Of a DNA stretch of 64,000 bases, positions 2,593 through 31,071 are shown in pieces. The translations under genes were made by a program, and so were the position numbers. Numbering within the stretch: the first letter of the stretch is position 1; every line of letters starts with the position of its first letter. Where the stretch lies: assembly GCA_028283655.1 (NCBI GenBank), contig JAPWKE010000001.1, positions 25,082 to 89,081 on the forward strand, read 5' to 3'. This DNA is from Acidobacteriaceae bacterium (lineage in GTDB: Bacteria > Acidobacteriota > Terriglobia > Terriglobales > Acidobacteriaceae). Under the pieces are notes generated by a model. It saw nothing but the letters and a program-made list of their open reading frames with translations. It was not told where the DNA came from and made no database searches.

Positions 2593-2809
2593 CTGCTTTT
2601 GGGGCGTTTTTTCGAAACCTTTTTGCGGGTTTTGAAAGCATTTTTTGCCAAAAATTGCATATATCTTGTTGCGACGGTCAAAGATCGCGGATATGCTGAC
2701 CCCATCTTTATATCAGTTTTTTGGATGCGCGGTCTTCTGTGAGGCCGCGTGTCTTTCTCTTACACAAAACAAAAACGTGTACGTCTGTTGGCTTTTCTGG
2801 GAGCTGAGA

Positions 2810-7608: not shown

Positions 7609-8172
7609 ATGCCCCCAAGCGCGCTGGAAACGCTTCTGGAACGGCGAGAGCGTTTTCTTGGCTTTATCGCTCGCCGCGTCTCGAACCACGAACTTGCCGA
7701 AGATATTCTGCAGGCGGCGTACATGCGGGCGCTGGAGAAGGCGCCTACTGGTACGGACCAGGAGTCGATTGTGGCCTGGTTCTTCAGCGTTCTGCGGCAC
7801 GCGATTATCGATCACTATCGTCGGCGGCATACAGAAGCTGCGGCGATGGAGCGGTTGCTGTTCGAACTTGGGCCGGATGAGCCTGTGGTTGCGGACAGTT
7901 CGGCACGGAGGTTTGTGTGCGGATGCATCGAGCGGGTTCTGCCGTCCCTGCGGCCAGCGTATGCCGAGCTTTTGAGCGAGGTGGATCTGGCGGAGACGCC
8001 CCTGACGCAGTTTGCGCTGGCGCATAACCTGACCCCGGGAAACGCCGCTGTGCGAGCGCATCGCGCACGTGCGGCGCTGCGGAGAGAGCTGGCAAAGACG
8101 TGTGGATCGTGTTCGATACACGCGTGTCTGGATTGCGTGTGCAAGCAGCCTCTGCCGGCGCTGGGTGTCTAA
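7609..8172 (+). CDS. ECF sigma factor with Cys-rich C-terminal extension (CorE-like)
   Basis: Sigma70 region 2 (DILQAAYMRALEK..WFFSVLRHAIIDHYRRR) and region 4 (YAELLSEVDLAETPLTQFALAHNLTPGNAAVRAHRARAALRREL) are present. There is a linker CxC (FVCGCIE) and a terminal CGSCSIHACLDCVC. No anti-sigma gene is adjacent. Confidence 0.85.
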   Translation: MPPSALETLLERRERFLGFIARRVSNHELAEDILQAAYMRALEKAPTGTDQESIVAWFFSVLRHAIIDHYRRRHTEAAAMERLLFELGPDEPVVADSSARRFVCGCIERVLPSLRPAYAELLSEVDLAETPLTQFALAHNLTPGNAAVRAHRARAALRRELAKTCGSCSIHACLDCVCKQPLPALGV

Positions 8173-8184
8173 TTTGAAGAACGG

Positions 8185-10287: not shown

Positions 10288-12345
10288 TTAGGGGCGAACG
10301 CCGAAGTTGCCGACGGCGAGAGGAGCGTTCGTCGGAGCTGCAATGCCGAAAACCTGGACCACAGGGTATGTTGCGGTCGAGGAGGCATTGATCAGCCACG
10401 TAGCACCGGCTTGATCGATTGCCACTGAAGGCATCGAGGTCGCGGTGGTGGCGGTTGCCAGAACGGACGTGCCGCTCGCGTCGACGGGCATCAGGCCATC
10501 GCCAGAACCGCGGCTCGCGAGCGAACCCGTGGTGGCGAGGTACTTCATGGCAGTGCTGCTTGCATCGACGACGAAGAGTGAGGAGTAACCCGCGGTGCTG
10601 GCCGCGGGGACAAGGCCGTGGTTGACGCCGTCCATGGCGATTGTGCTGCCGTAGAGGTTTACCTGTGCGGTTGTTCCACCAGTTGCTGCGGTCGGAATCG
10701 GGAAGTAGAACTTCGTGGTGCAGCCGGAGGTATCAGCCGCTCCATAGCATACGCCGCCGTAGCCACCGCTCTGGCCGGAGAGGCCTGCGATGACATTCCA
10801 GATGCGGGCGGCGCTGCTATCGAAGGTTGTTCCGCCAGAACGGTAGTTGCTGGTTCCGGACGATACCGTAACAGCGCCGGTGTAGGGCGATGCAAAGTTG
10901 AAGTAAGACGAAACGCCCGTGCCGCCTGCAACAATGTTGCTCGTGCGCGGGTCTACGGCAAGGTACTTGGCGCCGTAGTTCGTTGTAGCCGTTGGGAACG
11001 TGCTTGTTCCGGCGTAGGTGGTGTCTGCCGTCGTCGTGCCTACGGGGATCCGACCGATGTAGCTGGTACCTGCTGTGGAGGCGTAGGTGCTGAACCAGAC
11101 GTTGTTGCTGGGGTCAATGCTTACGGCATAGGCTGCGTCCGAAACTGCGACTGCCGTTGCGGTGGCTGTCGTGATGGTCGCGGGAACGGCCACGCCTACC
11201 GTTGTCGAGGTGCTGGGGGTGTACTTCCAGATCTGTCCTGCGGTATCAGCCAGCCATACGTTGGCGGGAGAGGCGTTATCGATAGCGAGACCTGCACCTG
11301 CAGTACCCTGCAGCGCCGTGGTTCCCCAGCCGCCGTTGGGCGAGAGGAGAGCACCTGCGGGCGAGAGCTCTGCCAGAGCGGCGTAAGGCATGCCGCCGAC
11401 CCAGACGTTGCCGCTTGCATCGACCTTGACGTCGTTCGGCTCGTAAGCCGGGGTGGTGCCGTTGGTCTCATAGCCAACGCTGTACTGAATGGCAACGCTC
11501 ACGTCGTGAGGTGCGGCGCTCAGCGTCGGGGTATAGAAGTTCGTGTTGGCCGTCGCGTTGTTGAAGACGTTCGTGACGTTCAGCATCGGGTAGAGCGCCC
11601 ATTCGAGCGCGATCTGCCAGGTGTTGGCTGGCGTAATGGAGTTCGGGTAAGCGATGGCGACGCTCGTGCAGCCTGCCGTGCTCATGCCTGCCGAGTTGAC
11701 GCAGGCGGAAAGCGAGTTCCCCAGCGAGTTGATCAACGTGTTCGGAACGTGTCCGTTGCCGCCAGCGGTTGTTGTATTCGCTGCCGTGCCTTGCATCGGA
11801 ACCAGAGCCAGTGCGTTCTGCATGGCGTTCTGCAGGCCCAGAGCGTTGGTGCTCGATGTGCCAATGTTGACCGAAGAGCCGTCTACTGTTGCAAAGCCGG
11901 AAAGTGCTTCCGCAGCTGCGATGGTCGAGATCTCGTCAATGACGACCGTTGTGCTGGAGGTGATGCTGGAGCAGGTGCCGAGTGCTTCCACGAGAATGTT
12001 GGTGGGAACGACGCTTCCCAGACCGGGATCGCCACCCTGCGCGACCATGTAGAGCTGGTCGGGGTCGGTGCAGGTGGTGCTGTTGCGGGTGATCGAAAAG
12101 TTGCCACCACTGTCCGTGGTCGCTGTTCCAAGCACGGTCGGTGCGCTGCCGTAGCCCGTGGTGCCGGCCTTGTAGAGGGTGATGGCCGCACCGGAGATCG
12201 GCTGGTGGCCGCCCATGGCCTTACCCTGTACTGCTGCAACGAGTTGGGAAGGGGACGTGGCAGTACCCTGCAGGCCGCAGCCGGTAAGCAGAGCGAGAGT
12301 GCCGACGGAGGAGAGAGCTGCAGCGAAGCGAAGTGTTCGTGTCAT
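10288..12345 (-). CDS. lipoprotein with beta-propeller (NHL-like) repeats, paralog of 2810..5002
   Basis: MTRTLRFAAALSSVGTLALLTGC contains a lipobox. The N-terminal module GGHQPISGAAITLYKAGTTGYGSA..GGNFSIT..GGDPGLG matches the same module in 2810..5002. GNVWVGG and NNVWFSTY blades are present. Confidence 0.85.
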   Translation of the reverse strand: MTRTLRFAAALSSVGTLALLTGCGLQGTATSPSQLVAAVQGKAMGGHQPISGAAITLYKAGTTGYGSAPTVLGTATTDSGGNFSITRNSTTCTDPDQLYMVAQGGDPGLGSVVPTNILVEALGTCSSITSSTTVVIDEISTIAAAEALSGFATVDGSSVNIGTSSTNALGLQNAMQNALALVPMQGTAANTTTAGGNGHVPNTLINSLGNSLSACVNSAGMSTAGCTSVAIAYPNSITPANTWQIALEWALYPMLNVTNVFNNATANTNFYTPTLSAAPHDVSVAIQYSVGYETNGTTPAYEPNDVKVDASGNVWVGGMPYAALAELSPAGALLSPNGGWGTTALQGTAGAGLAIDNASPANVWLADTAGQIWKYTPSTSTTVGVAVPATITTATATAVAVSDAAYAVSIDPSNNVWFSTYASTAGTSYIGRIPVGTTTADTTYAGTSTFPTATTNYGAKYLAVDPRTSNIVAGGTGVSSYFNFASPYTGAVTVSSGTSNYRSGGTTFDSSAARIWNVIAGLSGQSGGYGGVCYGAADTSGCTTKFYFPIPTAATGGTTAQVNLYGSTIAMDGVNHGLVPAASTAGYSSLFVVDASSTAMKYLATTGSLASRGSGDGLMPVDASGTSVLATATTATSMPSVAIDQAGATWLINASSTATYPVVQVFGIAAPTNAPLAVGNFGVRP

Positions 12346-15323: not shown

Positions 15324-17120
15324 TTACAGCGTTTCTCCGGGCTGTTGCTTCGGGTTGACCTTGTGTTCGTCGTTGCGACCGGTGGGGTGCTTGGCGAGCG
15401 CGGCGAGAAGGTCTTTGTCGTAGCCGTAGATGTCTTTGAAGAAGTGCACGGTGCCGTCTTCATCCGCGTTTGCGGTCAGGTAGGTGATGCTGACGGGGAG
15501 CAACGTCTTCAGGTTGACGGTCTTGTTGTTGTTGTCGCCGAACATGGCGTCGTGGACCTTGTCGGCGTCCCAGTTGCCTTGTCCGTCGAGCACCCAGTTG
15601 GCCATCTTCTCGGCATCGTTGAGGCGGATGCAGCCGTGGGATTTGTCGCGGCGCGTCATGCTGAAGTACTGCATCTCGGGCGTGGAGTGCATGTAGATGT
15701 CGTACTCGTTGGGGAACATGAACTTCACCAGACCGAGTGAATTTTTCGGGCCTGGCTTCTGGCGAACGACGTAGCGGCCGTGCTCGATATCGCTGGCGGA
15801 GAAGCCGGAGGCGGGCTGTCCGCTGGCTGTCACGACTTCGTAGTCATGGCTGGCGAGGTAGCCCACGCCGCTGGCGTTGATGTGCCGCATCAGCTCTTTC
15901 TTGATGATCGAGGTAGGCAGGTTCCAGTAGGGGCGGAAGGTGACGTAGCGCATGGAGCGCACGAACATTGGCGTGTCGTGGTTGCCTTCGGCTTTGCCGA
16001 CGACGACGCGCATCTTGAAGGCCAGCGTGTTGTCTGCGTTGTAGGTGCGGACGACGAACTCGGGCAGGTTGACGAGCACGCGCGGGTTGACGAAATTGTC
16101 TGGCAGCCAGCGCCAGCGTTCGAGCGACAGATCCAACTGCTGGACGCGCTGCGAGAGTGGAACGTTCAGGGCTTCGATGGTCAGCGGGGTGAGCTTGCCG
16201 TCGGGGGTGAGTCCGTGGCGCTCCTGGTAGTGCTTGACGGCCTCGCTCATCTCGCGCGAGTAGACACGCGTCTGCGGCAGGTCGGCCGGAGCGTCGCCTT
16301 CGGCCTGCAGCTTGAGGCGCAGGGGTTCGAGCGCGGCGTAGCTGCCCCCGACGCTGACGTCGTGGCTGACAGCAGGCAGAGGTTCTTCCGTGGCCTGTTG
16401 TTTTGCCGCAGCGAGGTACTGCACCAGAGCGTGTTCGGTGGCGGCGTACATGGCGTTGTGCGGTTCGACGGTGCCGACCACGGTGGGAACGTCGTCGGCG
16501 TCGACGACCTGGTCGTTCAGGAACTGGGCGAGTTGGAACTCGGCGCGCTTGGCGGGGACGTCGATGTCGAAGTTCAGGGTCTGGGGGTTGACGCGGCCGG
16601 AGTGCAGGTCGCTGACGAAGCGCATGGAGGAGATCGTCATGGCGGCGTCAAATTGCGCGATCACGGTCTGCGCGTTTTCGTCGGTCTGCTTCTTCTTGCG
16701 GATGTCTTCGATGCGTGCGACGCGGGCGGCCCAGCGGCTGGCGTCGTAGTCGTCGGGGTTCAGGCCCTTTTCGTCGGCGTGCGTGAAGAGGGTGATAAGC
16801 GCGGTGGCGGCGGCGGTGGGTTTGCCGTCGCGGGTCCAGGCGAGCTCGAAGTTACGGTCGTCGTAGAACTGCTGCACCTGGGGCTGGAAGTCGGAGTAGT
16901 TGGCCCACTGCATGATGGCGAGGTGGGGCGACTGGACGACCTGCTCGACGTTGTCGGCAAACTCGGCGGAGTTGGGTGGGGACTTGGCCTTGCGCTTGTG
17001 GAACCAGGAAGCGACGGTGCGGCGGCTGCTCTTGCAGCCTTCTGTCGGGAGCAAGATCGCGCTCACGAGCACCGCGCTGAGCAGCACGGGAACAACGGTC
17101 GACGAACGAAAGAGCTTCAC
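15324..17120 (-). CDS. L,D-transpeptidase (YcbB-like) with PG-binding domain
   Basis: YkuD catalytic motif HSTPEMQYFSMTRRDKSHGCIRL. PG-binding-like VKHYQERHGLTPDGKLTPLTIEALN. N-terminal signal/anchor. Confidence 0.9.
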   Translation of the reverse strand: MKLFRSSTVVPVLLSAVLVSAILLPTEGCKSSRRTVASWFHKRKAKSPPNSAEFADNVEQVVQSPHLAIMQWANYSDFQPQVQQFYDDRNFELAWTRDGKPTAAATALITLFTHADEKGLNPDDYDASRWAARVARIEDIRKKKQTDENAQTVIAQFDAAMTISSMRFVSDLHSGRVNPQTLNFDIDVPAKRAEFQLAQFLNDQVVDADDVPTVVGTVEPHNAMYAATEHALVQYLAAAKQQATEEPLPAVSHDVSVGGSYAALEPLRLKLQAEGDAPADLPQTRVYSREMSEAVKHYQERHGLTPDGKLTPLTIEALNVPLSQRVQQLDLSLERWRWLPDNFVNPRVLVNLPEFVVRTYNADNTLAFKMRVVVGKAEGNHDTPMFVRSMRYVTFRPYWNLPTSIIKKELMRHINASGVGYLASHDYEVVTASGQPASGFSASDIEHGRYVVRQKPGPKNSLGLVKFMFPNEYDIYMHSTPEMQYFSMTRRDKSHGCIRLNDAEKMANWVLDGQGNWDADKVHDAMFGDNNNKTVNLKTLLPVSITYLTANADEDGTVHFFKDIYGYDKDLLAALAKHPTGRNDEHKVNPKQQPGETL

Positions 17121-19942: not shown

Positions 19943-21532
19943 TTACTTTGCGAGCTCGGTGACCAGCGCGTCCATCGCTGCGCGGTCCGCAGAGGAGCCG
20001 GGCAGCCGGTTGTCGGCGAAGATGGCGAAGACCAGCACCGGTCTCCCCGGCATTTCGAGGAAGCCTGCGAGCGAGCGCGACTCGCCGAGAGTGCCTGTCT
20101 TGGCGAAGACATGTCCTCGCAGCGCGGAGTCCTTGAAGCGGCTGTGAAGTGTGCCGTCGACGCCAGCGATAGGCAGCGCGGCCTTCCACTGCGGGAACCA
20201 CGTTTGACGTGCGGCGTACTCAAGCAGAGCGACGGTTGCGCGGGGCGTTACGACGTCCTTGGTGCTGAGGCCGGAGCCGTCGAAGAAGAAGAAATCGTCC
20301 GGTGCCAGACCTGCGTGCAGAAGGAAGGCGCGCTCGAGTTGCAGCGCCTTGCGCAGGGTGTGTTCGCAGTCTTTGGCTGCGGCGATTTGGCGCAGGAGGA
20401 CCTCTGCGTGCAGGTTTTCGCTCTCTTTCAGCGTCAGTACGACGTCCTGCGCCAGCGGCGGGGAGAGCTTCTGGGCCAATACCGTTTCGATGGGTCGAAT
20501 TTCGTCTTCTGCCTGCGTGGTGCAGGGGAAAGGTGTTGTGTCTGTGGCGCGAGAGGGCAGCGGCAGGGGCTCGCGAACGGCATGTTGGAAGGAGCCGGCG
20601 AAGCCCGAATCCCAGTGTTCGGCGCGTGCGTGACCGGTGACGGCGATGCCCGCTGCTGTGGCGGCCTGCCGCATGGCGGCTGCAGCGTACTCGGCGGGAG
20701 CGTCGATGGACAGGTGCTCGTGGTCGGCACCGTACTTCGCGACAACGTCGCCCTGGACACGAAGGACTCGTGAGCCGGGAGCACGCTCTACGAGCACCTG
20801 ATTCTGGCCGAGGTCGGTGTTCAGGACGGCGGTGGCTGCGTCCACGCTGTAGAAGGGAACCGCTGGCTGCATCTCGACCGAATCGGTGGAGGCAACGCCT
20901 TTGGGCGAGTGGTCGGTGATGGTGAGCGTCAGCAGGTTGTCGTGGACGACGAGCGCGGAGGCTGGTGCGCCGTATCCCCAGAGCAGATCTTCGGTCGACC
21001 AGCCTTCGGCGTAGGGGGTGTCTTCGAAGTAGCTGTCGTCGCCGACGACGTCGCCTTCGACGCTCTGCAGGCCTTTGGCGGCTGCGGCCTGCGCGAGGGT
21101 GGTGAAGTCCTGCAGACCGGGGCCGGGCTGCTGATCGTTGGGCTGCCAGGGGAGGTTGTAGCTTCCGGCGAAGTTGGCGTCTCCGCCGCCGCGGAGGACG
21201 AGATCGCCGTGCAGGACGCCTTGATTCAGGCCGCCGCGAGCGACCAGCGAGGTCGTAAAGCGTTTGTTCGGGCCGAGCATGGTCATGGCGGCGGAGGTGG
21301 TGAAGAGCTTTGTCACCGAGGCGGGGTGGAAGAGCTTGCGGGCTTCGTGCTCGTAGAGCACCGTGCCGTCGAGCGTTGCGACCTCGACGCCCCAGTGGAC
21401 GCCCTGCACCTGTTCGCCGTCCAGTATGGGGTTCAGGCGGTCGGCCAGTGTTGTCTGGGCTGTTGCGGAAGCTGCGATCGACAGCAGGGCTGCTGCTGTC
21501 ACTGCGAAAGCTGCGGTGCGTCCCATCCTCAT
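19943..21532 (-). CDS. dacB: D-alanyl-D-alanine carboxypeptidase/endopeptidase (PBP4, S13)
   Basis: SxxK (HPASVTKLF), DGSGLS and KTGTL motifs, plus a signal peptide. Confidence 0.9.
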   Translation of the reverse strand: MRMGRTAAFAVTAAALLSIAASATAQTTLADRLNPILDGEQVQGVHWGVEVATLDGTVLYEHEARKLFHPASVTKLFTTSAAMTMLGPNKRFTTSLVARGGLNQGVLHGDLVLRGGGDANFAGSYNLPWQPNDQQPGPGLQDFTTLAQAAAAKGLQSVEGDVVGDDSYFEDTPYAEGWSTEDLLWGYGAPASALVVHDNLLTLTITDHSPKGVASTDSVEMQPAVPFYSVDAATAVLNTDLGQNQVLVERAPGSRVLRVQGDVVAKYGADHEHLSIDAPAEYAAAAMRQAATAAGIAVTGHARAEHWDSGFAGSFQHAVREPLPLPSRATDTTPFPCTTQAEDEIRPIETVLAQKLSPPLAQDVVLTLKESENLHAEVLLRQIAAAKDCEHTLRKALQLERAFLLHAGLAPDDFFFFDGSGLSTKDVVTPRATVALLEYAARQTWFPQWKAALPIAGVDGTLHSRFKDSALRGHVFAKTGTLGESRSLAGFLEMPGRPVLVFAIFADNRLPGSSADRAAMDALVTELAK

Positions 21533-21566: not shown

Positions 21567-22457
21567 ATGTTTGCTACGCGTTCGAGCTTTGATTGGCGAC
21601 TCCGCAGCCGCAGCCTGGCGCTGGGCGAGCGCACGCTTGTGATGGCGATCGTAAACCTGACGCCGGACAGCTTCTCCGGCGACGGCCTCGCGGTGCAGGG
21701 GATGGATGCGGCTGTGGCTGCAGCACTTTCGCAGCTGGATGCCGGAGCCGACATTCTTGATCTGGGAGCGGAGTCTACGCGGCCCGGAGCTACGCCGGTG
21801 GAGGCAGCGGCTGAGCAGCAGCGGCTGCTGCCTGTGCTGGAGGCGATTCTGCGCGAGCGGCCAGAGGCTGTGGTTTCGATCGATACCTACCATGCGGCGA
21901 CGGCGCTGGCGGCTGCCGAGCGTGGTGCGGAGATCATCAACGACGTCAGCGGGCTGACCTGGGATGACAAGATGGCGGGCGTTGTGGCGGCGACTGGCTG
22001 CGGCCTTGTGCTGATGCATACGCGCGGGCGCTTTACCGAGTGGAAGGAGTTGCCGCCGCTTGCGCCGGAGGCGCTTCTGCCGCTGGTGCGTGACGGGCTT
22101 CGCGAGCAGATTGCGCTGGCCAAGGCGTCGGGCGTCGCGGCGGGGAGGATCGTGCTGGACCCAGGGTTTGGCTTTGGCAAGCTGGGTGAGGAGAACTTCA
22201 CGCTGCTTGCCCGGATGGATGCTCTTGCTGCGTTGGAGTTGCCGGTTCTGGCGGGGATCTCACGCAAAGGCTTTCTGGGCGCAGCCGTTCGGCACACGCA
22301 GAGAGCGGAGCTTTCGCTGGCTGACGCTCGCCGCACGGCGACTACCGCTGCGAACGTGGCGGCGATCCTGGCGGGGGCGCACGTTCTTCGCGTTCACGAG
22401 GTGCAGCCAGCCCGCGAGGGGGCTGCGATCGCGGACAAGCTTCTGGCCTCCGGCTAG
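21567..22457 (+). CDS. folP: dihydropteroate synthase
   Basis: TLVMAIVNLTPDSFSGDG, ILDLGAESTRPGA, SIDTYHA, INDVSG, DPGFGFGK and SRKGFLG are present. ATG 21567 lies within track ORF 21363. Confidence 0.93.
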   Translation: MFATRSSFDWRLRSRSLALGERTLVMAIVNLTPDSFSGDGLAVQGMDAAVAAALSQLDAGADILDLGAESTRPGATPVEAAAEQQRLLPVLEAILRERPEAVVSIDTYHAATALAAAERGAEIINDVSGLTWDDKMAGVVAATGCGLVLMHTRGRFTEWKELPPLAPEALLPLVRDGLREQIALAKASGVAAGRIVLDPGFGFGKLGEENFTLLARMDALAALELPVLAGISRKGFLGAAVRHTQRAELSLADARRTATTAANVAAILAGAHVLRVHEVQPAREGAAIADKLLASG

Positions 22458-22566
22458 ATTCTGGCGTCTTCAATTTCTGCTTCCGGCAAGGCGTCTGTTT
22501 GGGGCAAGACGACGGGCGAGCCCGAAGGCCGCCCGTTGCTGGAACTCTGAAGCCGTAGAAAGGCCG

Positions 22567-23151
22567 TCAGATGGTCATGATGTCTTTTTCCTTCGCCTTG
22601 AAGAGCTCCTCGATGCGCTTGATTTCGGAGTCGGTCAGGGCCTGAATCTCTTCATTGGCCTTCTTTTCGTCGTCAGCCGAGATGAGCTTGTCCTTGGCCG
22701 CTTTCTTCACCTGCTCGTTGCCGTCGCGGCGAATGTTGCGGATGGAGGTCTTGTGGTCTTCCACCGTGCCTGCGAGCATTTTTACGGCGTCCTTGCGACG
22801 CTCTTCGGTCATGGGAGGGACCGGAACGCGGACGATTTTGCCGTCGTTCATGGGGTTGAAGCCCTGGTTTGATCCGCGGATCGCCTTTTCAATCGCGCCG
22901 AGAACCGTCTTGTCCCACGGCTCCACGGTGATGGACTGGGCGTCGGGGGTTTTGAGCGTGCCGACCTGAGAGAGGGGCACTTCCGAGCCGTACTGCTCCA
23001 CGCGGATGCTGTCCAGCATGTGTACCGAGGCACGCCCCGTGCGCACGCTAGCCAGATGTGACCGGAAGTCCTCGACGGTTTTTTCCATGCGGGACTTCAA
23101 GCTGCCGTGTACGCTCTTGAGCGCTTCGATATTTGCCATAGCCGATGCCAT
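22567..23151 (-). CDS. frr: ribosome recycling factor
   Basis: HLASVRTGRASVHMLDSIRVEQYGSEVPLSQVGTLKTPDAQSITVEPWDK...VPVPPMTEERRKD. GGAGGAG SD. Confidence 0.96.
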   Translation of the reverse strand: MASAMANIEALKSVHGSLKSRMEKTVEDFRSHLASVRTGRASVHMLDSIRVEQYGSEVPLSQVGTLKTPDAQSITVEPWDKTVLGAIEKAIRGSNQGFNPMNDGKIVRVPVPPMTEERRKDAVKMLAGTVEDHKTSIRNIRRDGNEQVKKAAKDKLISADDEKKANEEIQALTDSEIKRIEELFKAKEKDIMTI

Positions 23152-23383
23152 GCCGTATTTCTCCTCCGTGGATATTCTCCACCAACGCCTGATTGTACAA
23201 AGGACGAGGCCAGTCAGCGAAGGAGAACCTTCCCCGGACGGCTTCCAGCAGGCGTTTCATTCGCCATGAGATGCAGGTTGCCAGCATTTTGGAACGCCTG
23301 GAGGCGGTTCGTTAGGGCGTGGCAGCTTTTTTGCGGGTGTGTGCGTGGCGTCAAATTTCTTCTGTGGCGATGACTTTATAGTG

Positions 23384-23412
23384 TTGACGCCGGTTCTCTG
23401 GCACCATAAACT
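23384..23412 (+). promoter_or_regulatory. candidate promoter TTGACG-N17-TAAACT
   Basis: TTGACG at 23384-23389, a 17-nt spacer, then TAAACT at 23407-23412. It lies about 165 nt upstream of the mini sorting-signal gene. Confidence 0.3.
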
Positions 23413-23576
23413 TCTCGTCAAGCCTGCAAAAGTACAAAAATGAACTTAAGTACAGGCCCTCTGGCTTTTCCAGGAAGCGAATTAAGGCCTTCTTAAAGAG
23501 TCAAGACGTAAGCTGTTTTACAAATTTTCTCCACTCCCCAAGCGCTTTTGTGCGCAGTCTTTGAGGTTTTTACCCG

Positions 23577-23759
23577 ATGAAGAAGATCTTTCTGTACACC
23601 TGTATGGCTATCGTTCTCGGTGCTGCCGCCCGTCCGGCCCTTGCTCAGGATGGTTGCGACAACTCGCCGGAAAATCCGACCGTCATCCTGGCAGGCCTTG
23701 CAGGTGGCGTCTATGGCCTGAACACCCTTCGCACACGTTTCCGCGCGCGCAAGAAGTAA
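23577..23759 (+). CDS. 60-aa exosortase-substrate-like mini-protein (P-E-x-P-T C-terminal sorting signal)
   Basis: MKKIFLYTCMAIVLGAAARPALA is a signal peptide. It is followed by QDGCDNS, then PENPT, a TM helix VILAGLAGGVYGL, and the basic tail RTRFRARKK. It lies directly upstream of the exosortase. Confidence 0.75.
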   Translation: MKKIFLYTCMAIVLGAAARPALAQDGCDNSPENPTVILAGLAGGVYGLNTLRTRFRARKK

Positions 23760-23828
23760 GCGCACAGGGTTCTGTTTTCCGCAGGTTCTCAAGACGCGGC
23801 TCCGGCGGTTCCGGGCCAGTAGTGCCCC

Positions 23829-25436
23829 TTGCCGAAATCTGATTCGACCCCGACTGTTCTAGACCCCCGCATTGCGGTTGCATTGGCTTGCCTTTGCGCT
23901 GCGGTGGGGGTTTTTACCGTTTACCCTTCCGCCCGTTCGCTGCTCGGTATCTGGGGTAGCGATGAGCTAAAGAGCATGGGCGCGGTCGTGCCGTTCGTTT
24001 CTGCAGGCATGATTCTGCGGGTGTGGCGGCGGCTGGGCTGGGAGACCGAAGGCACCTGGTGGGGGTTCGGTCTGCTCGCCGTGACGGTGGCTCTGGTGTT
24101 TGTGCAGGCCCAGACGCTTTTCGTCGTCATGGTGAATAAGAACTGGCTGCTGCAGCTTCCTCCGCTGCCGCTTGTGGCGGTGGTTTACGCCGCCAGTATG
24201 GTGCTGCTCTTCGGCGGTCGCCGTTTGCTGCGTGCTGCTTGGTTTCCTGTCGTGTTTATGTGGGCCGTTATTCCGGTTCCCCAGACGTTTTCCCGCCGTA
24301 TTGATCTTCCGCTGCAGCACGCGTCTGCGATGGTGGCGCGAGGCTTTGCCCATCTGCTGGGCGAGCAGCTAACCCAGGACAAACTCCGCCTGATGTTCAC
24401 GCCGGAGTTTGGCATGTTCATCGCTCCGGGCTGCAACGGGATTCGCGGAGCGATCACGCTGGGCATGGCGGCGTTGGTGGTGGGCTATCTTTACCGCTTC
24501 CGCTGGTATGTTTTTGCTCCGGTCGTTGCCGGGGCGGTGCTGCTGGGGTATCTGTTTAACTTTCTGCGGCTTTGCCTGCTGGTGGTCTGGTACAAACTGG
24601 CGCTGCCGCATCGGTGGATGCAGACGCACTCGAAGCAGGCGGATTACTGCATTGGCGGAACGCTCTTTGTCTGCGCGCTGCTGCTGTTCTTCTTTGTGGC
24701 GAACAGGCTTCGCCGCGAGGAGGACGATGTTCTTCCGGCGGTGGCAGATGAGCCGGTTCGGCGCCCCACGCATGCGCGTTCGTACCTGCTTCGTGTCGGT
24801 GTGGTGCTTGTGCTCTCTGCGATCTTCGCGGCGGACACCTTCCACACGATTCGCGCCGAGCACATGAACGAGATGCAGGTGGAGCCCGCTCCCTTGCCGG
24901 ATCAGATTGGGAGCTGGCACAAAGTTCGCTCGTACGATGACCGCCTGGATACAGGCTGGATCGTCTATATCTGGGGCGATTATGTCTCGGCGGACGGCCA
25001 CACGAAGGTTTCGCTCGGTATCTCTCCGCGCCTTGGCGTGCATGATGTTGAGGTTTGCCATCTGGCACGCGGCGAAGAGCCTACCTGGCACGGTTCTTTT
25101 TCGATTCCGACGCCTAGCGGCCCGGCTGGTTTTACTGCCGCAACGTACAACGACGGCGCGCGGCAATGGCTTGAGGCCTCCAGTGTTTGCCAGGGCGGGA
25201 AGTGCGAGCAGTACTCAGATGAGACCAAACACATCACAATGGTGGTCGCTCCGCCCGAAGGAAGGCTGCCAATGATGTCGACTTTGGGGCCTGTTCCGAT
25301 TCTGATGAAGGTCGAAACCACCGACGCCAATAGCCCCGTCGGCGTGGCAGAACCCCATCTTCAGGAGCAACTTGCCTCATTTCTGCGGGAGGCCGATCTT
25401 GGCCACCTGACCCAGTCTTACGGTCGGCGCCACTAA
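23829..25436 (+). CDS. exosortase fused to an EpsI-like C-terminal domain
   Basis: Polytopic N-terminal half with the catalytic-type motif APGCNGIRGAITLG and FNFLRLCLLV (N..R). The C-terminal part after a TM helix has an EpsI-like LPDQIGSWHK...HDVEVCHLARGEEPTW. TTG start, so the start is uncertain. Confidence 0.8.
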   Translation: MPKSDSTPTVLDPRIAVALACLCAAVGVFTVYPSARSLLGIWGSDELKSMGAVVPFVSAGMILRVWRRLGWETEGTWWGFGLLAVTVALVFVQAQTLFVVMVNKNWLLQLPPLPLVAVVYAASMVLLFGGRRLLRAAWFPVVFMWAVIPVPQTFSRRIDLPLQHASAMVARGFAHLLGEQLTQDKLRLMFTPEFGMFIAPGCNGIRGAITLGMAALVVGYLYRFRWYVFAPVVAGAVLLGYLFNFLRLCLLVVWYKLALPHRWMQTHSKQADYCIGGTLFVCALLLFFFVANRLRREEDDVLPAVADEPVRRPTHARSYLLRVGVVLVLSAIFAADTFHTIRAEHMNEMQVEPAPLPDQIGSWHKVRSYDDRLDTGWIVYIWGDYVSADGHTKVSLGISPRLGVHDVEVCHLARGEEPTWHGSFSIPTPSGPAGFTAATYNDGARQWLEASSVCQGGKCEQYSDETKHITMVVAPPEGRLPMMSTLGPVPILMKVETTDANSPVGVAEPHLQEQLASFLREADLGHLTQSYGRRH

Positions 25437-25494
25437 ATACCGCGTAAGGATTTCGTTCTGCCCGTCGCCGTCGCCTATAATCAAGACTCCACCT

Positions 25495-28400
25495 GTGAGG
25501 CGTTTTTACAGTAGGCGGCGCGGGTTTCATCTTGTTGTATCGAGCAGTGAGGGTGTGGTCATCTTTTCCGGAAAGCCTGTGAGCGCGAGCGCTCTGAACC
25601 GTACGACTCCAGCTGTGCGCACGCGCCCCAGCCGACTCGCCATCCTTTCGACGCTGCTTGCGCCGTGTTTGGCTGTGTTGTCGCTGGCCGTTGCGCCTTT
25701 GGCTGCACGCGCTCAGGTGCGTGCTACGCCGCAATTTTCCGCCGCCAATGCGCCGCAGATTCTCTGCCAGACGCAGGTCGTCGGCAACCGTCGCATCCCC
25801 AAGGAGTCCGTGCTTGCACGTCTCTTCTCGCGGCCCGGCGATCAGTACGATCCGGCGATGCTCGAGCGCGATTTCAACTCGCTCTGGAACACCGGCTACT
25901 TTGACGATGTGCGCATTGAGCGCGCAGATGATCCAAACTGCGTGCAGTTGATCGTCTACGTCCGCGAGAAGCCGACGATTCGCGAGATCAACTACAAGGG
26001 CCTCAGCTCTGTCAGCGTCTCCGACGTGCTGGAGCGCTTCAAGAAGGCCAAAGTTGGTCTTTCGGTGGAGAGCCAGTATGACCCGACGCGCGTGAAGCGT
26101 GCTGAGGTCGTCTTGAAGGACCTGCTCGGTGAACACGGCCATCAGTTTGCTTCGATCCGTACCGAAATCAAGACCATTCCGCCGGCTGCGGTCGCCATCA
26201 CGTTCAACGTGAAGGAAGGCCCGACGGTCAAGGTTGGCAAGATCCAGTTTGAGGGTAACGAGCACGTTGGCTCGCGCGATCTGCGCGCTTCCATGCGCAA
26301 CCTCAAGCCGATCGGTGTTCCGCACTCGATCCTCCTCGAGAACATTCTGCCGCGTACCTATGACGCGTCGAAGCTCGACGAAGATGCTGACCGCGTTCGC
26401 CAGGAGTATCGCAACCGCGGTTATGCCAAGGCGATCACGGGTGAGCCGCAGACGAACGTACGCAACGCCGGCGGTATCAACCCGCTCACGCTGCGTCCTT
26501 CGACGGGCAAGCGCGTTGACATCATGATCCCGATCGAAGAGGGCGAGCGTTATCGCCTCGGCGGTATCACCTTTACCGGCAACAAGATGTTGAACAACTC
26601 CAAGGCCCTGCGCGCGCAGTTTGCGATCAAGGACGGAGACTGGTTCAACGCGACGTTGTTTGGCAAGGGACTGCAGGCTCTGCAGAAGGCTTATGGCTCC
26701 TACGGCTACATCAACTTTGTAGGAACGCCGACGCCTCGCTTCGATGAAGCCAAGCACCTCGTTTATCTCGATATCGATATTGATGAAGGCAAGAAGTTCT
26801 CCATCGCTCGCATCGAGTTCAGCGGCAACACGCTGACGCGTGATCGCGTTATCCGTCGCGAACTGCTGGTGGAAGAAGGCCAGCCGTATAACTCGCAGCT
26901 TGTCGATCTTTCGTTGCAGCGCCTGAATCAGCTCTCGTATTTCGAGAACCTGAAGGCAGACGAAGACGTCGAAACGCGCCAGAACGCTGACGCGGGCACG
27001 GTTGACCTGCTGATCAAGCTGAAGGAGAAGGGTAAGAACTCCATCGGCCTGAACGGCGGTATCTCGGGTATGTCGGGTTCGTTCATTGGCCTGAACTACG
27101 AGACGAACAACTTCCTCGGCTTCGGTGAAACGCTGTCGGTCAACGCTAACCTTGGCGATCTGTCGCGCAACCTGTCGTTCGGCTTCAACGAGCCGTACCT
27201 GCGCAACAAGCCGATCTCGCTGGGTGTACAGGTCTTCTCGACCAAGTACGATTACAACCCGTCGAAGAGCTACTCGATTGCCAACGGCCAGAGCGCGAAC
27301 CTGACGAACGCACAGTCCTCGCTGCTGACCAACTACAACCAGGCATCGACGGGTATTACGATCTCCACCTCGACGGCGCTGCGTAAGCTGTTCCGCATGA
27401 CGGGTGTGGCTCGTGTGGGTCTTTCGTACTCGCTGTCGAAGTCGGGCATTACGACCTTCAACGACAACACGCGCAACGTCTTCTCGACGCTGGCCTTCCG
27501 CTCCGGTATTGCCGGACAGAACCAGCTTGACGGCATCATCTCTTCGATCATTACGCCGAGCTTCTCGTTCTCGACGCTGGATCGTGGTGTTGGACCGCAC
27601 TCGGGTCGCGATTTGAATGTGGCGTTCCAGTTCGCTGGTTTCGGTGGCAATACGAAGTACTTTGCTCCGACGGTTGCGTTCCGCCAGTTCTACCCGATGA
27701 AGGGGCTGAAGATTAACCGCGAAGGCCACAACGTCCTCGCCATCCGCGCCCAATACTCGAGCGTCTATGGCTTTGGCGGTCAGGTTGCTCCGCCGTTCGC
27801 ACGTATCTATGGTGGCGGCGAAAACGATGTTCGTGGTTTCGACATCCGCGCCAGCTCGCCTTATACGCTGATCCCGGTTCGGACGATGTTCAATCTGACG
27901 AACCCGGACGGCACGCTGGTTCCGCGTGACAAAACGAACCCGCTGCTTGGTAACGTGCAGATCCCCGTCCCGGTCTACCGACTCTCGTCGATTGGTGCGG
28001 ACACGGGCATCACGTCGAACATCGAGTACCGTATTCCGATCATGAACCAAGTCACGTTCGACTTCTTCACGGACTTCGGTCTCACGTTCAATACGTCGAG
28101 CTCGCAGCTTCGTCAGAGCGTCCTTGGACTTTCGCAGCTGAACTCGGCGCCGTACGGTTGCGCGGTAGTATCAAACAACGGAACCTGCGATGGGACCCAG
28201 TCTGTCAACTTCCCGCTCTACCTGCCGGCTCTGAAGGGTACGAACTTCGTACCGCGCATGTCGAACGGTGCGGAACTTCAGGTGGTTCTGCCGATCGTCA
28301 ATGCTCCACTGCGTATCTACTATGCTTACAACCCGCTTCGCCTCTACAAGACGCTGCCTCAGCAGCTTCCTGTCTCGGCAGCCGAGTTCAAGAGCTTCTT

Positions 28401-28719: not shown

Positions 28720-29727
28720 TTATTTGGCTGGGTAGTTATCTTTGAACGGCTCGTAGGTCTTGCGCTTCATGTGCAGGGTCATCTTGATGTCTGATTCGAA
28801 CTCGTTGAAGATGTTCGTCAGCATGGCGCCGCCAATGGACGTTCCGTAGCCCGAGATCATGTTGCCGAAGCCGCGGTTCTGGGCCGGGTAATAGGCCTGG
28901 GTGGTGGCTGCGGTGACGAGATAGCCAGCGAGCAGGGCGGTGTTGATCGTTGTGCTCTCGGAGTCCTGACGCGCGATGAAGACGCGGCTGGCGGCGTAGA
29001 GTGCGCGGTCAAAGACGTTGTAGCGGGGGCCTTTGACGTAGTAGCGCAGATCCTGGTGCAGCAGCGGGGCGAAGACGATGTCCGTCATGACGCCTTGCGT
29101 GGTGGAGCGCAGGGCAGCCGCGCCGAGGCGCTGGCCAAAAGCTCCTGTGTCTGTGCCGTAGTTTGGACGGCTGTTGATGAGCTGGCTCCAACCAGCCGAG
29201 ATGAACCATCCACCTACGTTGCCGGGGGAGTAGAGGTCCTCCGCGCCCGTGATGACCTTTTCGTGATAGGTCTGGCGGTGCGTGACGTATCCGGCCGGGA
29301 TGTACTTGGTGTACTGGCCGATCTCGGGGCGGTTTCTGCGCGTCTCGTTGGCGCGGGTCGCTGGAGCGGGAACGGCGGGAATCTGCGCCTGCTGCTTCTT
29401 ATGCCTTCTGCCAAACCAGGGGAAGTCTACTTCGTCGCTGTCGGCATTCGAGGCTGCGCTCATCGCTGCGGAGGGATCTTCCGGAAGGGAGGACGTGGTG
29501 GCACTGCTGCTTTCGCCGACGGCGGTGGCGCGTGAGGTGAACGGGTTGGTGGTGCGGGCAAGCTCATCAAACGCCATGGGCGTTGTGGCGGCGGCCAGCA
29601 TCGTGCGTTCATGGGGAGCCTCGGCCATGTGGAGCGCGCTCTGGGCGTGGGTCGCTGCGGCGACTCCCAGTAGCATTCCTGCGACGGCGGCAGGGCGGGT
29701 CAAGGTCTTCCAGGCATTGGTTCCCAT
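28720..29727 (-). CDS. secreted hypothetical protein
   Basis: MGTNAWKTLTRPAAVAGMLLGVAAATHAQS is a signal peptide. GAGGA lies 7 nt before ATG 29727. I recognise no family. Confidence 0.7.
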   Translation of the reverse strand: MGTNAWKTLTRPAAVAGMLLGVAAATHAQSALHMAEAPHERTMLAAATTPMAFDELARTTNPFTSRATAVGESSSATTSSLPEDPSAAMSAASNADSDEVDFPWFGRRHKKQQAQIPAVPAPATRANETRRNRPEIGQYTKYIPAGYVTHRQTYHEKVITGAEDLYSPGNVGGWFISAGWSQLINSRPNYGTDTGAFGQRLGAAALRSTTQGVMTDIVFAPLLHQDLRYYVKGPRYNVFDRALYAASRVFIARQDSESTTINTALLAGYLVTAATTQAYYPAQNRGFGNMISGYGTSIGGAMLTNIFNEFESDIKMTLHMKRKTYEPFKDNYPAK

Positions 29728-29958
29728 TGGTTCATCCTCTTTCTTCTCGCGATTCATCGCTGTACGGGCCTTTGTTGCATCCTCGCATAGTGTGAGGGGG
29801 AACCCAGGGGCCTGTGGTGCAAGCTTTTGAAAACGCTGTTCTCAGAAGGACGCTTCTGCTGGCGTTGTGGTTGTCTTCGAGTGGCTGCAGAGCTGGCTGC
29901 ATTTACCAAGTCGGCAACAGCGAGGCAAATCCCGTTGACCACAGGCGTTGTGGCGGCC

Positions 29959-30231: not shown

Positions 30232-31071
30232 ATGGCGATGCGGTTCTCCAGGATGCTTCGCCGATCTGCGCTGACAGGTGTTGCCACGGTCGCGGCGCTG
30301 CTGCTGGCGGGCTGTCACCACAGCGTGCATACGGCTTCACGCAATGCTCCAGAGGAGCGCCCGGACTGGGCTTCGGGCTATCCGCCAAAGCATCACAGGG
30401 AAGCGCCGAGAAGCTCGAACGGCGGCACGACGACTGCCTCGCGTGAGCCGTTACCAACGCACCCTCCGCTGCCGAGTGGGGCGCTGGATGAGTCCAGCCT
30501 GAGAGGGAAGCCGCTGCTGGTGGATACCGGGATGGCGAGTTGGTATGGGCCGCAGTTCAACCATAAGAAGTCGGCTGACGGAAACGTTTACGATGCGAAC
30601 GGATTGACCGCCGCCCATCGTACGCTGCCGCTCGGGACGCTGGCGCGGGTGACGAACCTTGCGACGAATGAGAGCGTGATCGTTCGGATTACGGACCGTG
30701 GGCCGTTTGTCCGGGGCCGGATCATGGATCTTTCCGAAGGCGCGGCCAAGCGGATCGACCTCTACCGCATGGGGATTGCGAAGGTGAAGATCGAGGCATA
30801 TGCGCCGGTCGAAGTGGCTGCCGAGCCGGAGAAACGTGGGCTCTGGTGTGTGCAGACGGGAGCGTTTGCTACCGAACGCGGAGCGCGTGATCTGCGGGAT
30901 GCGCTGGCGAAGCGCTATGCTACGGCGAAGGTGCAGGAGTTCCAGGGGCCAACCGGCTTCTGGGTCAGAATCGATCCGGCGGGGCGGGAGAAGACGCAGG
31001 CCGAGGCGATTCGAAGCTGGATTGGCAAGCCGGACGACCAGGCGGATGCGTATCTCGTTCGGCTGAACTAA
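30232..31071 (+). CDS. rlpA: septal ring lytic transglycosylase RlpA-family lipoprotein with SPOR domain
   Basis: Lipobox LLLAGC. The DPBB core is [58 protein letters not shown]. The C-terminal part is SPOR-like ([21 protein letters not shown]). Confidence 0.9.

Follow-up and report, generated by a model that had tools for sequence, protein, structure and literature searches.

What does an exosortase do with a substrate that consists of almost nothing except sorting signals? The question is raised by two adjacent genes in a 64,000-nucleotide stretch of an Acidobacteriaceae contig (hereafter the window, meaning the whole of the DNA that was analysed), the first of which codes for a protein of 60 residues and the second for an exosortase. 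It is practically certain that the two genes code for exosortase J (XrtJ) and its PExPT-CTERM target. As to function, we consider it somewhat probable that they form a one-enzyme, one-substrate XrtJ/PExPT-CTERM pair that is restricted to Acidobacteriaceae-type bacteria and in which cleavage and transfer serve the assembly of an envelope polysaccharide.

The two ORFs share a frame and are separated by 69 nt in the window's ORF list, with the gene order frr(-), small gene(+), xrtJ(+), bamA(+):

22567..23151, minus strand: frr (ribosome recycling factor), the divergent upstream neighbor, named from reading its translation
23384..23412, plus strand: candidate sigma-70-like promoter, TTGACG-17-TAAACT, a weak match about 165 nt 5' of the small ORF
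23577..23759, plus strand: small ORF, the PExPT-CTERM protein (target of XrtJ), 60 aa plus stop; TIGR04200
23829..25436, plus strand: exosortase J (XrtJ), 535 aa with a TTG start; TIGR04199, PF09721
25495..28536, plus strand: bamA, the downstream neighbor, with 5 POTRA domains plus Omp85 (Pfam POTRA and Omp85 matches)

The distance from xrtJ to bamA is 58-143 nt, as set by the choice of start codon. The promoter has candidate status only, the scan for sigma-70-like sites having returned one site against 0.6 expected by chance. No terminator-like site was found between the small gene and xrtJ or between xrtJ and bamA, and no regulatory RNA was matched in Rfam at E up to 1 across positions 22000-26500. 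The window contains no EPS locus around the pair, and neither the window nor the 80 loci collected contain a further xrtJ or a sugar transferase.

The translation of the small ORF, MKKIFLYTCMAIVLGAAARPALA-QDGCDNS-PENPT-VILAGLAGGVYGLNTL-RTRFRARKK, bears out the architecture that an earlier note on this DNA had claimed for it, namely a signal peptide, a few exposed residues, a P-E-N-P-T motif, a transmembrane (TM) helix and an Arg/Lys tail:

23577..23645, plus strand: Sec signal peptide, residues 1-23, with an MKK n-region, a hydrophobic core and a P-A-L-A c-region
23646..23666, plus strand: exposed segment Q24-D-G-C27-D-N-S30, in which Gly26, Cys27 and Ser30 are near-invariant
23667..23681, plus strand: signature motif P31-E-N-P-T35, invariant in the 75 loci with the small gene; the presumed recognition and cleavage site of XrtJ
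23682..23729, plus strand: TM helix, residues 36-51 (VILAGLAGGVYGLNTL), read from sequence
23730..23756, plus strand: cytoplasmic basic tail RTRFRARKK, where orthologs carry 3-8 Arg/Lys

The same note had pointed to a PExPT-CTERM class as a P-E-x-P-T variant of the PEP-CTERM signal, and this class does exist: TIGR04200 ("targ_of_XrtJ / PExPT-CTERM protein") matches the small protein over model positions 1-57 of 57 with 67.6 bits (E=6e-19; curated cut-off 40 bits), and PF27850 is its precomputed Pfam assignment. All the features of a PExPT-CTERM protein are present, from the signal peptide through the short spacer, the P-E-x-P-T motif and the TM helix to the basic tail. The classical PEP-CTERM models of NCBIfam and Pfam do not match it at E up to 1; what it shares with the classical domain is an architecture of P-E-[x]-P, TM helix and Arg tail. 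Signal peptidase I is predicted to cut after Ala23; among the 68 orthologs with standard spacing, position -1 is Ala in 61 and Gly in 7, -3 is Ala, Leu or Val, -4 is Pro in 65, and +1 is Gln in 61 and Leu in 7. C-x-x-[ST]-P-E-N-P-T occurs in all 75 loci, with Asp or Asn at C+2 in 71 and Ser at C+3 in 73 of the 75 orthologs, and the motif is followed by 13-18 uncharged residues up to the first Arg or Lys (73 orthologs). The expectation of a minimal mature part with one Cys is likewise matched by a single conserved Cys. Among 73 distinct nucleotide versions from relatives, the synonymous codons are all in use for every invariant residue (for the Cys, TGT in 37 and TGC in 36), and differences in the 9-codon core fall at third positions, as against first plus second positions, at about 6:1. 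This third-position excess points to purifying selection on the peptide.

The adjacent gene had been read as an exosortase, and classification with subfamily HMMs places it as XrtJ. TIGR04199 "exosortase J" aligns residues 22-531 with model positions 3-522 of 522 (631.8 bits, E=1e-189; curated cut-off 200 bits), PF09721 matches residues 26-293 (E=2.1e-36, 126 bits, cut-off 25.7) and the exosortase/archaeosortase signature TIGR04178 matches residues 197-294 (40.7 bits, cut-off 23); the generic TIGR02602 scores 42.5, under its cut-off of 105.55. The public gene call is a 486-aa protein from Met50; it lacks the first TM helix, which is modelled with confidence. The alignment with homologs begins at residue 1 of the 535-aa version, and its TTG at 23829 is the earliest possible start past an in-frame TAG at 23817-23819. 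The AlphaFold2 model (pLDDT 79, pTM 0.72) has a multi-helix core at high confidence, and the following features were marked in the core and beyond it:

24432..24434, plus strand: Cys202 codon (APGCNGIRG), the presumed catalytic nucleophile, invariant in 76/76 XrtJ from both clades and inside the TIGR04178 match
24567..24569, plus strand: Arg247 codon (FNFLRLC), the presumed catalytic Arg, invariant in 76/76
24774..24878, plus strand: extra TM helix, residues 316-350, which joins the core and the periplasmic domain (AlphaFold2 model)
24897..25433, plus strand: C-terminal periplasmic alpha/beta domain, residues 357-535, without a family match (conservation, domain-only model)

Exosortases have a Cys and an Arg as catalytic residues of their polytopic membrane core, with a His proposed as the third residue. 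The presumed equivalents in XrtJ lie in the GCNGIRG (Cys202) and FNFLR (Asn244/Arg247) motifs, and Asn244, Arg206, Asp159, Arg171 and Asp272 are also invariant in all 76 sequences. No His of the TM core is invariant across both clades, position 164 being His in 42 of the 76 and Arg in 32; hence, conservation alone does not complete the proposed Cys/Arg/His triad in XrtJ. In a tblastn search, none of 72,556 plasmids matched the exosortase core.

The C-terminal region of about 200 aa had been taken for an EpsI-like domain, and here the earlier reading is not borne out. No Pfam or NCBIfam model, those of EpsI included, matches it at E up to 10, and the EpsI models match none of 13 diverse orthologous C-terminal domains. 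A profile search against PDB sequences found nothing, and Foldseek searches with the full-length and the domain-only models gave no significant PDB neighbor (best E=0.04, TM 0.42 or less). EpsI homology of this domain thus finds no support in the HMM scans, the PDB profile search or Foldseek. The modelled topology of a TM helix (316-350) followed by an alpha/beta domain would fit an EpsI-type layout of one TM helix and a periplasmic domain of about 180-200 aa. The XrtD (TIGR04152), XrtW (NF038142) and XrtT (NF033770) enzymes probably have an EpsI-like C-terminal domain, and their HMMs span 472-494 positions as against 261-306 for XrtA, XrtB, XrtC and XrtV. The alignments of XrtW and XrtD pass the extra TM helix of XrtJ, to residues 365-369, but these longer models align with the core and linker helix only, and the C-terminal domain matches none of them. 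Its domain-only model is well predicted (pLDDT 86, pTM 0.83), with a weak, non-significant structural likeness of the PsbP/PA94 kind, and H405, D406, C410, H411, R414, G415, E416, E449, C454 and C459 are invariant within it, so that it displays an invariant H-D...C-H...C...C cluster.

The pair is co-conserved in relatives, as had been anticipated: one small ORF stands directly upstream of xrtJ on the same strand in 75 of the 78 informative loci, that is, those with upstream sequence, and the small gene is absent within 8 kb of xrtJ in the other three (L067, L069 and L079). The loci fall into two paralogous clades, both of which occur on one contig. In clade 1, frr is kept upstream in 37 loci and bamA downstream in 36, whereas in clade 2 (40-47% identity) the pair lies between pepN/glk and a gene for an NHL-repeat lipoprotein. 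The window copy belongs to the frr/bamA-linked clade, its XrtJ scoring 632 bits as against 674 and 723 for two clade-2 members scanned. Accordingly, the earlier picture of a pair wedged between frr and bamA stands for the synteny of clade 1 and falls in two respects, as clade 2 is sited elsewhere and frr is on the opposite strand, which means that the pair was not inserted into one operon. The TM segments of the small proteins have co-diverged (LAGLAGG vs LA[VL]VGSAG), each clade's version being found beside its own XrtJ. The two clades have no neighbors in common, and in neither is an acceptor, glycosyltransferase or export gene conserved beside the pair; a sugar transferase is likewise missing from the 8 kb around every xrtJ. 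The sequence of the window organism itself was found only in two DNA runs of a plant metagenome, with no RNA, and expression was therefore assessed on an ortholog (L016) from a relative: assembled RNA contigs of three peat metatranscriptomes span its small ORF, two of them reaching into xrtJ, in line with the expectation that the small gene is expressed.

The identity of the pair is already known, as a curated NCBIfam, PGAP-annotated family catalogued for soil Acidobacteria, and the suggestion that it might be novel has to be given up; since annotation pipelines already name both genes, their identity adds nothing new. Homologs carry the public names 'exosortase J' and 'PExPT-CTERM protein' or, at JGI, 'XrtJ-associated TM-motif-TM protein', and RefSeq names an adjacent pair in Granulicella cerasi. 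The window locus is a member of the TIGR04199/TIGR04200/PF27850 pair on all counts, scores, adjacency, order, strand, size, motif and taxon being in agreement. Our literature search for XrtJ, exosortase J and PExPT-CTERM found no paper on the function of the pair, and the supplement of a Granulicella WH15 omics paper does not mention an exosortase. Three leads were not found recorded elsewhere: the constant spacing between Cys and motif, the occurrence of the module fused to a transferase, and the H-D...C-H...C...C cluster.

The first two of these leads come from a profile search of 1.84 billion representatives, which matched 363 family clusters. The best 150 of the 363 are almost all 54-136 aa long, with conserved architecture and length, and no large PExPT-tailed protein is among them; the earlier proviso that many large PExPT-CTERM proteins would mark the small one as a degenerate fragment thus finds no support among these 150. 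In 141 of 149 representative clusters, the Cys precedes P-E by exactly 4 residues, with another spacing in six and no Cys in two, while the spacer upstream of it varies from 2 to about 55 residues and is of low complexity when long. Family-wide, the motif reads PENPT in 98, PEDPT in 26, PENPS in 7, PESPT in 6 and PEAPT in 4. In at least 15 clusters (P0280, P0287-P0300), the PExPT module is naturally fused to a polyprenyl-phosphate sugar transferase: the three members scanned match TIGR04200 with 46.6-66.8 bits and have a C-terminal Bac_transf/TIGR03025 domain, for which TIGR03013 'XrtA/PEP-CTERM system glycosyltransferase' is a further, partial match. In these fusions, the module is N-terminal and takes the place of the TM domain with which WbaP-type transferases usually begin. 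Within 10 kb of the fusion genes there is no xrtJ, and no C-terminal sorting tails were found on the large proteins encoded beside them. Envelope polysaccharide assembly is the most likely pathway that the pair serves, given that the enzyme whose catalytic domain is joined to the module in nature is an exopolysaccharide-type polyprenyl-phosphate sugar-1-phosphate transferase. The roles that the note had suggested for the peptide (carrier, primer, signal or acceptor) are reasonable but speculative, and among them a link to glycan synthesis gains indirect support from these fusions.

The mechanism that we propose for XrtJ, cleavage followed by transfer, is a serious possibility that falls just short of probable. 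The Sec machinery would insert the 60-aa pre-protein, and signal peptidase I would cut it after A-L-A, exposing an N-terminal Gln. The P-E-N-P-T motif, TM helix and Arg tail would then dock in XrtJ, and Cys202 would attack in or beside the motif, so that the fragment with TM helix and tail is set free. What is left, a peptide of some 9-12 residues (Q-x-G-C-x-[DN]-S-P-E...), would be kept as a thioester until XrtJ hands it to an envelope acceptor. The near-invariant Cys, whose distance from the motif is fixed, could be the functional group of this product or part of the recognition site.

Among known systems, that of XrtA/PEP-CTERM, in which exosortase A goes with many PEP-CTERM proteins, EpsI and an EPS locus, shares with the XrtJ pair the enzyme superfamily (PF09721, TIGR04178) and a tail built from a motif, a TM helix and an Arg cluster; the fused Bac_transf domain further suggests a common link to polysaccharide priming. 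The two differ in that XrtA has dozens of substrates and XrtJ one, essentially devoid of a passenger domain, and in the P-E-x-P-T motif, which has one extra residue. Moreover, the XrtA model scores XrtJ with only 50.7 bits against a cut-off of 208, the XrtJ pair has no surrounding EPS locus, and XrtJ carries a fused novel periplasmic domain. The only branch with experimental evidence is archaeosortase A/PGF-CTERM of Haloferax volcanii, where the C-terminal helix is removed and a lipid attached (10.1101/2023.06.07.544157). Archaeosortase A is a membrane Cys protease homologous to XrtJ and offers the best available model of cleaving and transferring, but it is archaeal, recognizes another motif and acts on large S-layer glycoproteins, with a lipid acceptor not known from bacteria. 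A signature motif with an invariant Cys is also seen in the Cys-motif tripartite tails, where the Cys is thought to be modified before or during cleavage; these tails, however, belong to many large proteins and are cut by glutamic intramembrane proteases of the CPBP/Rce1 type rather than by exosortases.

An alternative that we regard as unlikely, and yet take most seriously, is that the small protein is no cargo but a two-helix hairpin that stays membrane-embedded and serves XrtJ as a docking, regulatory or pseudo-substrate subunit. What matters would then be the C-terminal TM segment and the cytoplasmic tail, for instance in recruiting or gating a polysaccharide-priming transferase, with cleavage by XrtJ as the switch. 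The TM-motif-TM name given to the family by JGI conforms to this, as does the exposed part, a loop of about 7 residues and nothing else. The fusions speak for it as well: with the module N-terminal to a large cytoplasmic enzyme (Bac_transf) in those clusters, it cannot act there as a C-terminal sorting signal. Against it, the c-region for signal peptidase is kept in 65-68 of the 68 sequences, which would be difficult to understand were the first helix retained; conservation peaks in the exposed loop (G-C-x-x-S-P-E-N-P-T) rather than in the tail; and the long low-complexity spacers are what would be expected of an exported stalk.

A bolder variant, which we hold to be decidedly improbable, would make the PExPT module a self-contained reaction cassette instead of a sorting tag: XrtJ would form the thioester at P-E-N-P-T, and the Cys 4 residues ahead of it would then either close a thiolactone ring, giving Gram-negative Acidobacteria a cyclic peptide of the AgrB/AgrD kind, or pass the peptide on as a thiol-bearing polysaccharide primer, with help from the H-D...C-H...C...C cluster. 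A primer coupled to the initiation of a polysaccharide would explain why the cassette is fused to a phosphoglycosyl transferase.

Slightly less probable again, and put forward by analogy, is an intramolecular resolution of the XrtJ acyl-enzyme, in which the thiol of the substrate Cys would attack the thioester to give a small cyclic thiolactone that may serve as a diffusible signal or as a metal or redox ligand. The model here is AgrB/AgrD of staphylococci, in which a membrane Cys protease cuts off the C-terminal portion of a small, dedicated precursor, the thioester is resolved by a Cys set at a constant distance from the cut, and signal peptidase trims the AgrD N-terminus. The resemblance to the XrtJ pair is one of analogy without homology. 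It is favored by the membrane Cys protease, by the single enzyme with its single peptide and tiny product, and by the constancy of the Cys-to-motif distance as against the variable N-terminal spacer. However, neither clade has a conserved sensor kinase (such as a two-component partner), transporter or receptor in its neighborhood, the neighbors being housekeeping genes; the residues that would form the ring (C+2 and C+3) are conserved where pheromone systems have diversified into hypervariable peptides; and the two clusters lacking the Cys and the six with other spacings fit poorly.

An ordinary lipoprotein or lipid-anchored peptide, diacylglycerated on the Cys by Lgt and cut by signal peptidase II, with an incidental C-terminal helix, is a highly improbable reading of the protein. 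The invariant Cys does lie a few residues past the signal peptide, and it is preceded as L-G-G-C in 7 of 75 orthologs. Yet the lipobox [LVI][ASTVI][GAS]C is found in its strict form in 1 of 75 and in a relaxed form in 9, residue -3 is mostly Gln (the window protein has A-Q-D-G-C), and the spacer ahead of the Cys may reach about 55 residues; the invariant P-E-N-P-T, the TM helix, the Arg tail and the dedicated exosortase would also go unexplained. An Lgt/LspA substrate was thus rejected on the lipobox statistics. Finally, that the ORF is what decay has left of a larger PEP-CTERM protein, or is spurious and without function, as its brevity and its mostly generic-looking signal and TM sequence might suggest, is refuted by the motif in 75/75 loci, the conserved position, the 363-cluster family with no large relatives among its best 150, the clear purifying selection and the RNA contigs over an ortholog, and carries next to no weight.

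Exosortases were predicted twenty years ago, and the XrtJ pair, with its one enzyme and one substrate, would be a valuable model system for them. A processed product of about 10 residues is small enough for direct mass spectrometry, and the substrate should accept tags, since natural spacers can be longer by up to about 55 residues. Acidobacteria are abundant in soil and peat. For these bacteria, the fixed-distance Cys, the fusion to an EPS-type transferase and the periplasmic domain of XrtJ lead to testable hypotheses on how the envelope or exopolysaccharide may be built.

The two genes at the centre of this analysis were read in the window, and they correspond to what the earlier note had described, namely a tiny protein consisting almost entirely of sorting signals followed by a large exosortase:

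23577-23759, + strand: small gene, 60 aa, MKKIFLYTCMAIVLGAAARPALA-QDGCDNS-PENPT-VILAGLAGGVYGLNTL-RTRFRARKK
23829-25436, + strand: xrtJ, 535 aa, beginning 69 nt 3' of the small ORF
23829-23975, + strand: xrtJ start region; the public call (P0017) has 486 aa and starts from Met50
25041-25061 and 25188-25205: H-D-x-x-x-C-H ... C-x-x-x-x-C cluster, XrtJ residues 405-411 and 454-459, invariant in both xrtJ clades

In NCBIfam, the small protein matches the whole of TIGR04200 ("targ_of_XrtJ / PExPT-CTERM protein") with 67.6 bits against a cut-off of 40, which bears out the suspected PExPT-CTERM membership. The subfamily models place the large protein in exosortase J (TIGR04199, model positions 3-522 of 522, 631.8 bits against a cut-off of 200) and far under the cut-offs of the remaining exosortase subfamilies; in Pfam it carries PF09721. 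The small protein is already tagged with PF27850 in the public protein collection, and its relatives appear there as "PExPT-CTERM protein" or "XrtJ-associated TM-motif-TM protein". The nearest relatives, with 72-73% identity, come from Granulicella cerasi, in which the two genes carry consecutive RefSeq accessions. Given these model matches and the existing annotation, the pair is of a known, curated kind and the system is already catalogued; a literature search found no paper studying it. Among sequencing runs, the exact sequence is present only in DNA runs from a plant metagenome. The TTG at 23829 is likely the start of xrtJ; with the Met50 start of P0017, the protein loses its first TM helix, a segment that is conserved among homologs and has a modelled pLDDT above 90.

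Scanning one genome per species, we recovered 80 xrtJ loci. Every one is of the Acidobacteriaceae type, with a few from MAGs labelled otherwise. Upstream sequence is absent at two of these; in 75 of the remaining 78, exactly one same-strand ORF combining C-x-x-[ST]-P-E-N-P-T with a TM helix and a basic tail lies directly upstream of xrtJ (two of the 75 are irregular, with a frameshift or a long tail), so that the co-conservation of the pair holds in relatives. At the other three loci (L067, L069 and L079), there is no PExPT ORF within 8 kb of xrtJ. Their xrtJ genes (at about 8001-9590 in each) retain the Cys and Arg motifs and score very highly against TIGR04199 (723 bits for L067, where glk directly abuts xrtJ). 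The oddly labelled MAG contigs (L009, L010, L046, L048 and L067), titled Verrucomicrobia, Gammaproteobacteria or Rhodanobacteraceae, bear xrtJ loci typical of Acidobacteriaceae, synteny included, which suggests mislabelled or contaminated bins.

The xrtJ genes fall into two clades, one 52-72% identical to the window copy (clade 1) and the other 40-47% (clade 2); both clade-2 members scanned exceed the TIGR04199 cut-off. The clade-1 order, PBP4 (-), folP (+), frr (-), small gene (+), xrtJ (+) and bamA (+), is kept in 36-37 loci, whereas in clade 2 glk, a methyltransferase gene and pepN precede the small gene and xrtJ, with an NHL-repeat lipoprotein gene following in 33 loci (most others lack it or lack downstream sequence). 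Hence, the placement between frr and bamA, genes that the earlier note assigned to one conserved envelope-biogenesis neighborhood, stands as synteny within clade 1; given the different clade-2 order it is lineage-specific, and frr is transcribed divergently. The small gene is the one constant partner of xrtJ. One contig, JBBRNF010000003.1, holds both clades about 21 kb apart (L027 and L054), each with its own small substrate; these are therefore paralogous systems rather than moved orthologs. The TM helices of the substrates and the corresponding enzymes have diverged together. The remainder of the window consists of housekeeping and envelope genes (gyrB, dnaB and genes for an L,D-transpeptidase, PBP4, an RlpA-like protein and a GGDEF protein), and there is no EPS cluster within it. 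The further features of interest are:

15324-17120, - strand: YkuD L,D-transpeptidase with a peptidoglycan-binding domain
19943-21532, - strand: PBP4-type D-Ala-D-Ala carboxypeptidase
30232-31071, + strand: RlpA-like protein (DPBB and SPOR domains)
28720-29757, - strand: 345-aa ORF convergent with bamA, in the same position in 28 clade-1 loci
2645-5002, + strand, and 10288-12345, - strand: paralogous beta-propeller-type proteins, also at L043:9538-11583 and L084:13420-15552 (-)

The cell-wall enzymes and bamA make up a cell-envelope region, none of which is conserved with xrtJ in clade 2. The 345-aa ORF has no Pfam match and a signal-like segment at its N-terminus. The N-terminal ~300 aa of the beta-propeller-type proteins are shared, at 31-36% identity, with the clade-2 NHL-repeat lipoprotein just 3' of xrtJ; these paralogs are probably just an abundant acidobacterial family.

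The earlier note had conceded that many large PExPT-CTERM proteins elsewhere would make the small one a degenerate fragment. When 1.84 billion representative proteins were searched with a profile, 363 matched; among the best 150 of these, 148 are proteins of 54-136 aa matched across the whole profile, and the other two are a repeat artefact and a fusion (P0280). In the relatives' nucleotide versions of the small gene, each invariant residue is encoded by all its synonymous codons, and in a 9-codon core third-position changes predominate by about 6:1; the gene is under strong purifying selection. As for expression, the evidence is indirect: the small ORF of a relative (L016) is covered, at a depth similar to frr, by assembled contigs of three peat metatranscriptomes, and two contigs extend from it into xrtJ, with DNA carry-over possible. 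A decayed or spurious small ORF is excluded.

The signal-peptide c-region of the 68 orthologs whose spacing is standard takes the form Pro(-4)-[A/L/V](-3)-x-[A/G](-1), with Gln (61) or Leu (7) at +1, and by this pattern reads as a canonical signal peptidase I site, with a predicted mature N-terminus of Gln-x-Gly-Cys. The core G-C-x-[DN]-S-P-E-N-P-T is of constant length across the 75 loci. Among 149 representative clusters, the Cys lies four residues before P-E in 141, five in 5 and two in 1, while 2 clusters lack it; the motif reads PENPT in 98, PEDPT in 26 and otherwise P-E-x-P-[TS], and 2 to about 55 low-complexity residues separate the signal-peptidase site from the Cys. The standard product of both cuts is presumably a 9-12-residue peptide in which only the Cys and Ser side chains are strictly conserved.

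AlphaFold2 models full-length XrtJ (pLDDT 79) with residues 13-295 as a polytopic core, 316-350 as one more TM helix and 357-535 as an alpha/beta domain, which reaches pLDDT 86 and pTM 0.83 when modelled alone. Across 76 sequences of both clades, the core invariants are Cys202, Arg206, Asn244, Arg247, Asp159, Arg171 and Asp272, with no invariant His; those of the periplasmic domain are His405, Asp406, Cys410, His411, Arg414, Gly415, Glu416, Glu449, Cys454 and Cys459. The cluster that most of the latter form may bind a metal, may combine a disulfide with a free thiol, or may supply the missing catalytic His. The periplasmic domain has no match in Pfam, NCBIfam or PDB sequences even at E=10, nor do 13 diverse orthologs, and Foldseek gives insignificant neighbors (best PsbP and PA94, E about 0.04, TM 0.42 or less). 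The "EpsI-like" label is thus without sequence support, although the topology, in which a periplasmic domain follows a TM helix, would allow it.

Most likely, the small pre-protein would be exported by Sec and trimmed at its N-terminus by signal peptidase I; XrtJ would then recognize P-E-N-P-T together with the TM helix and the basic tail, with Cys202 attacking, helped by Arg247, and the short Cys-bearing peptide would be handed to some envelope acceptor, probably one belonging to a polysaccharide-related pathway. The scheme is patterned on archaeosortase A and on the transpeptidase model that has been proposed with Cys, Arg and His, as outlined in 10.1101/2023.06.07.544157. Alternatively, the small protein could be a hairpin kept in the membrane as a regulatory subunit, or XrtJ might close an intramolecular thiolactone in the manner of AgrB/AgrD. 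A lipoprotein is rejected, as a strict lipobox occurs in just one of the 75 orthologs.

A lead beyond the curated family description comes from P0280 and the 14 clusters P0287-P0300 (66-83% identical to it, several from independent sources on contigs of 30-316 kb), which carry a complete PExPT module at the N-terminus: signal peptide, G-C-[DE]-D-S-P-E-D-P-[ST], TM helix and Arg tail. In the three members scanned, TIGR04200 scores 46.6-66.8 bits (positions 1-57 in two, 7-57 in the third). A basic linker of ~100 residues then leads into the catalytic domain of an EPS-type polyprenyl-phosphate glycosyl-1-phosphate transferase (Bac_transf), matching PF02397, TIGR03025 (positions 247-435) and, in part, the XrtA-system model TIGR03013. 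The topology is consistent, since the Arg tail lies on the cytoplasmic side, as does the transferase domain. The conserved natural fusion is seen at these loci:

L081-L086: fusion loci, e.g., L084:10001-11131 and L085:10001-11224

The fusion genes lie downstream of three very large NHL/SBBP/Big_5 secreted proteins or lipoproteins, and one member (P0293) has lost the Cys. No xrtJ is found within 10 kb of the fusion genes, and no transferase within 8 kb of any of the 80 xrtJ. Judged from its domain architecture, the fusion appears to link the PExPT module to polysaccharide priming and to show that the module can work when not C-terminal. The minimal XrtJ/PExPT pair would lend itself well to resolving, at last, the chemistry of exosortases.
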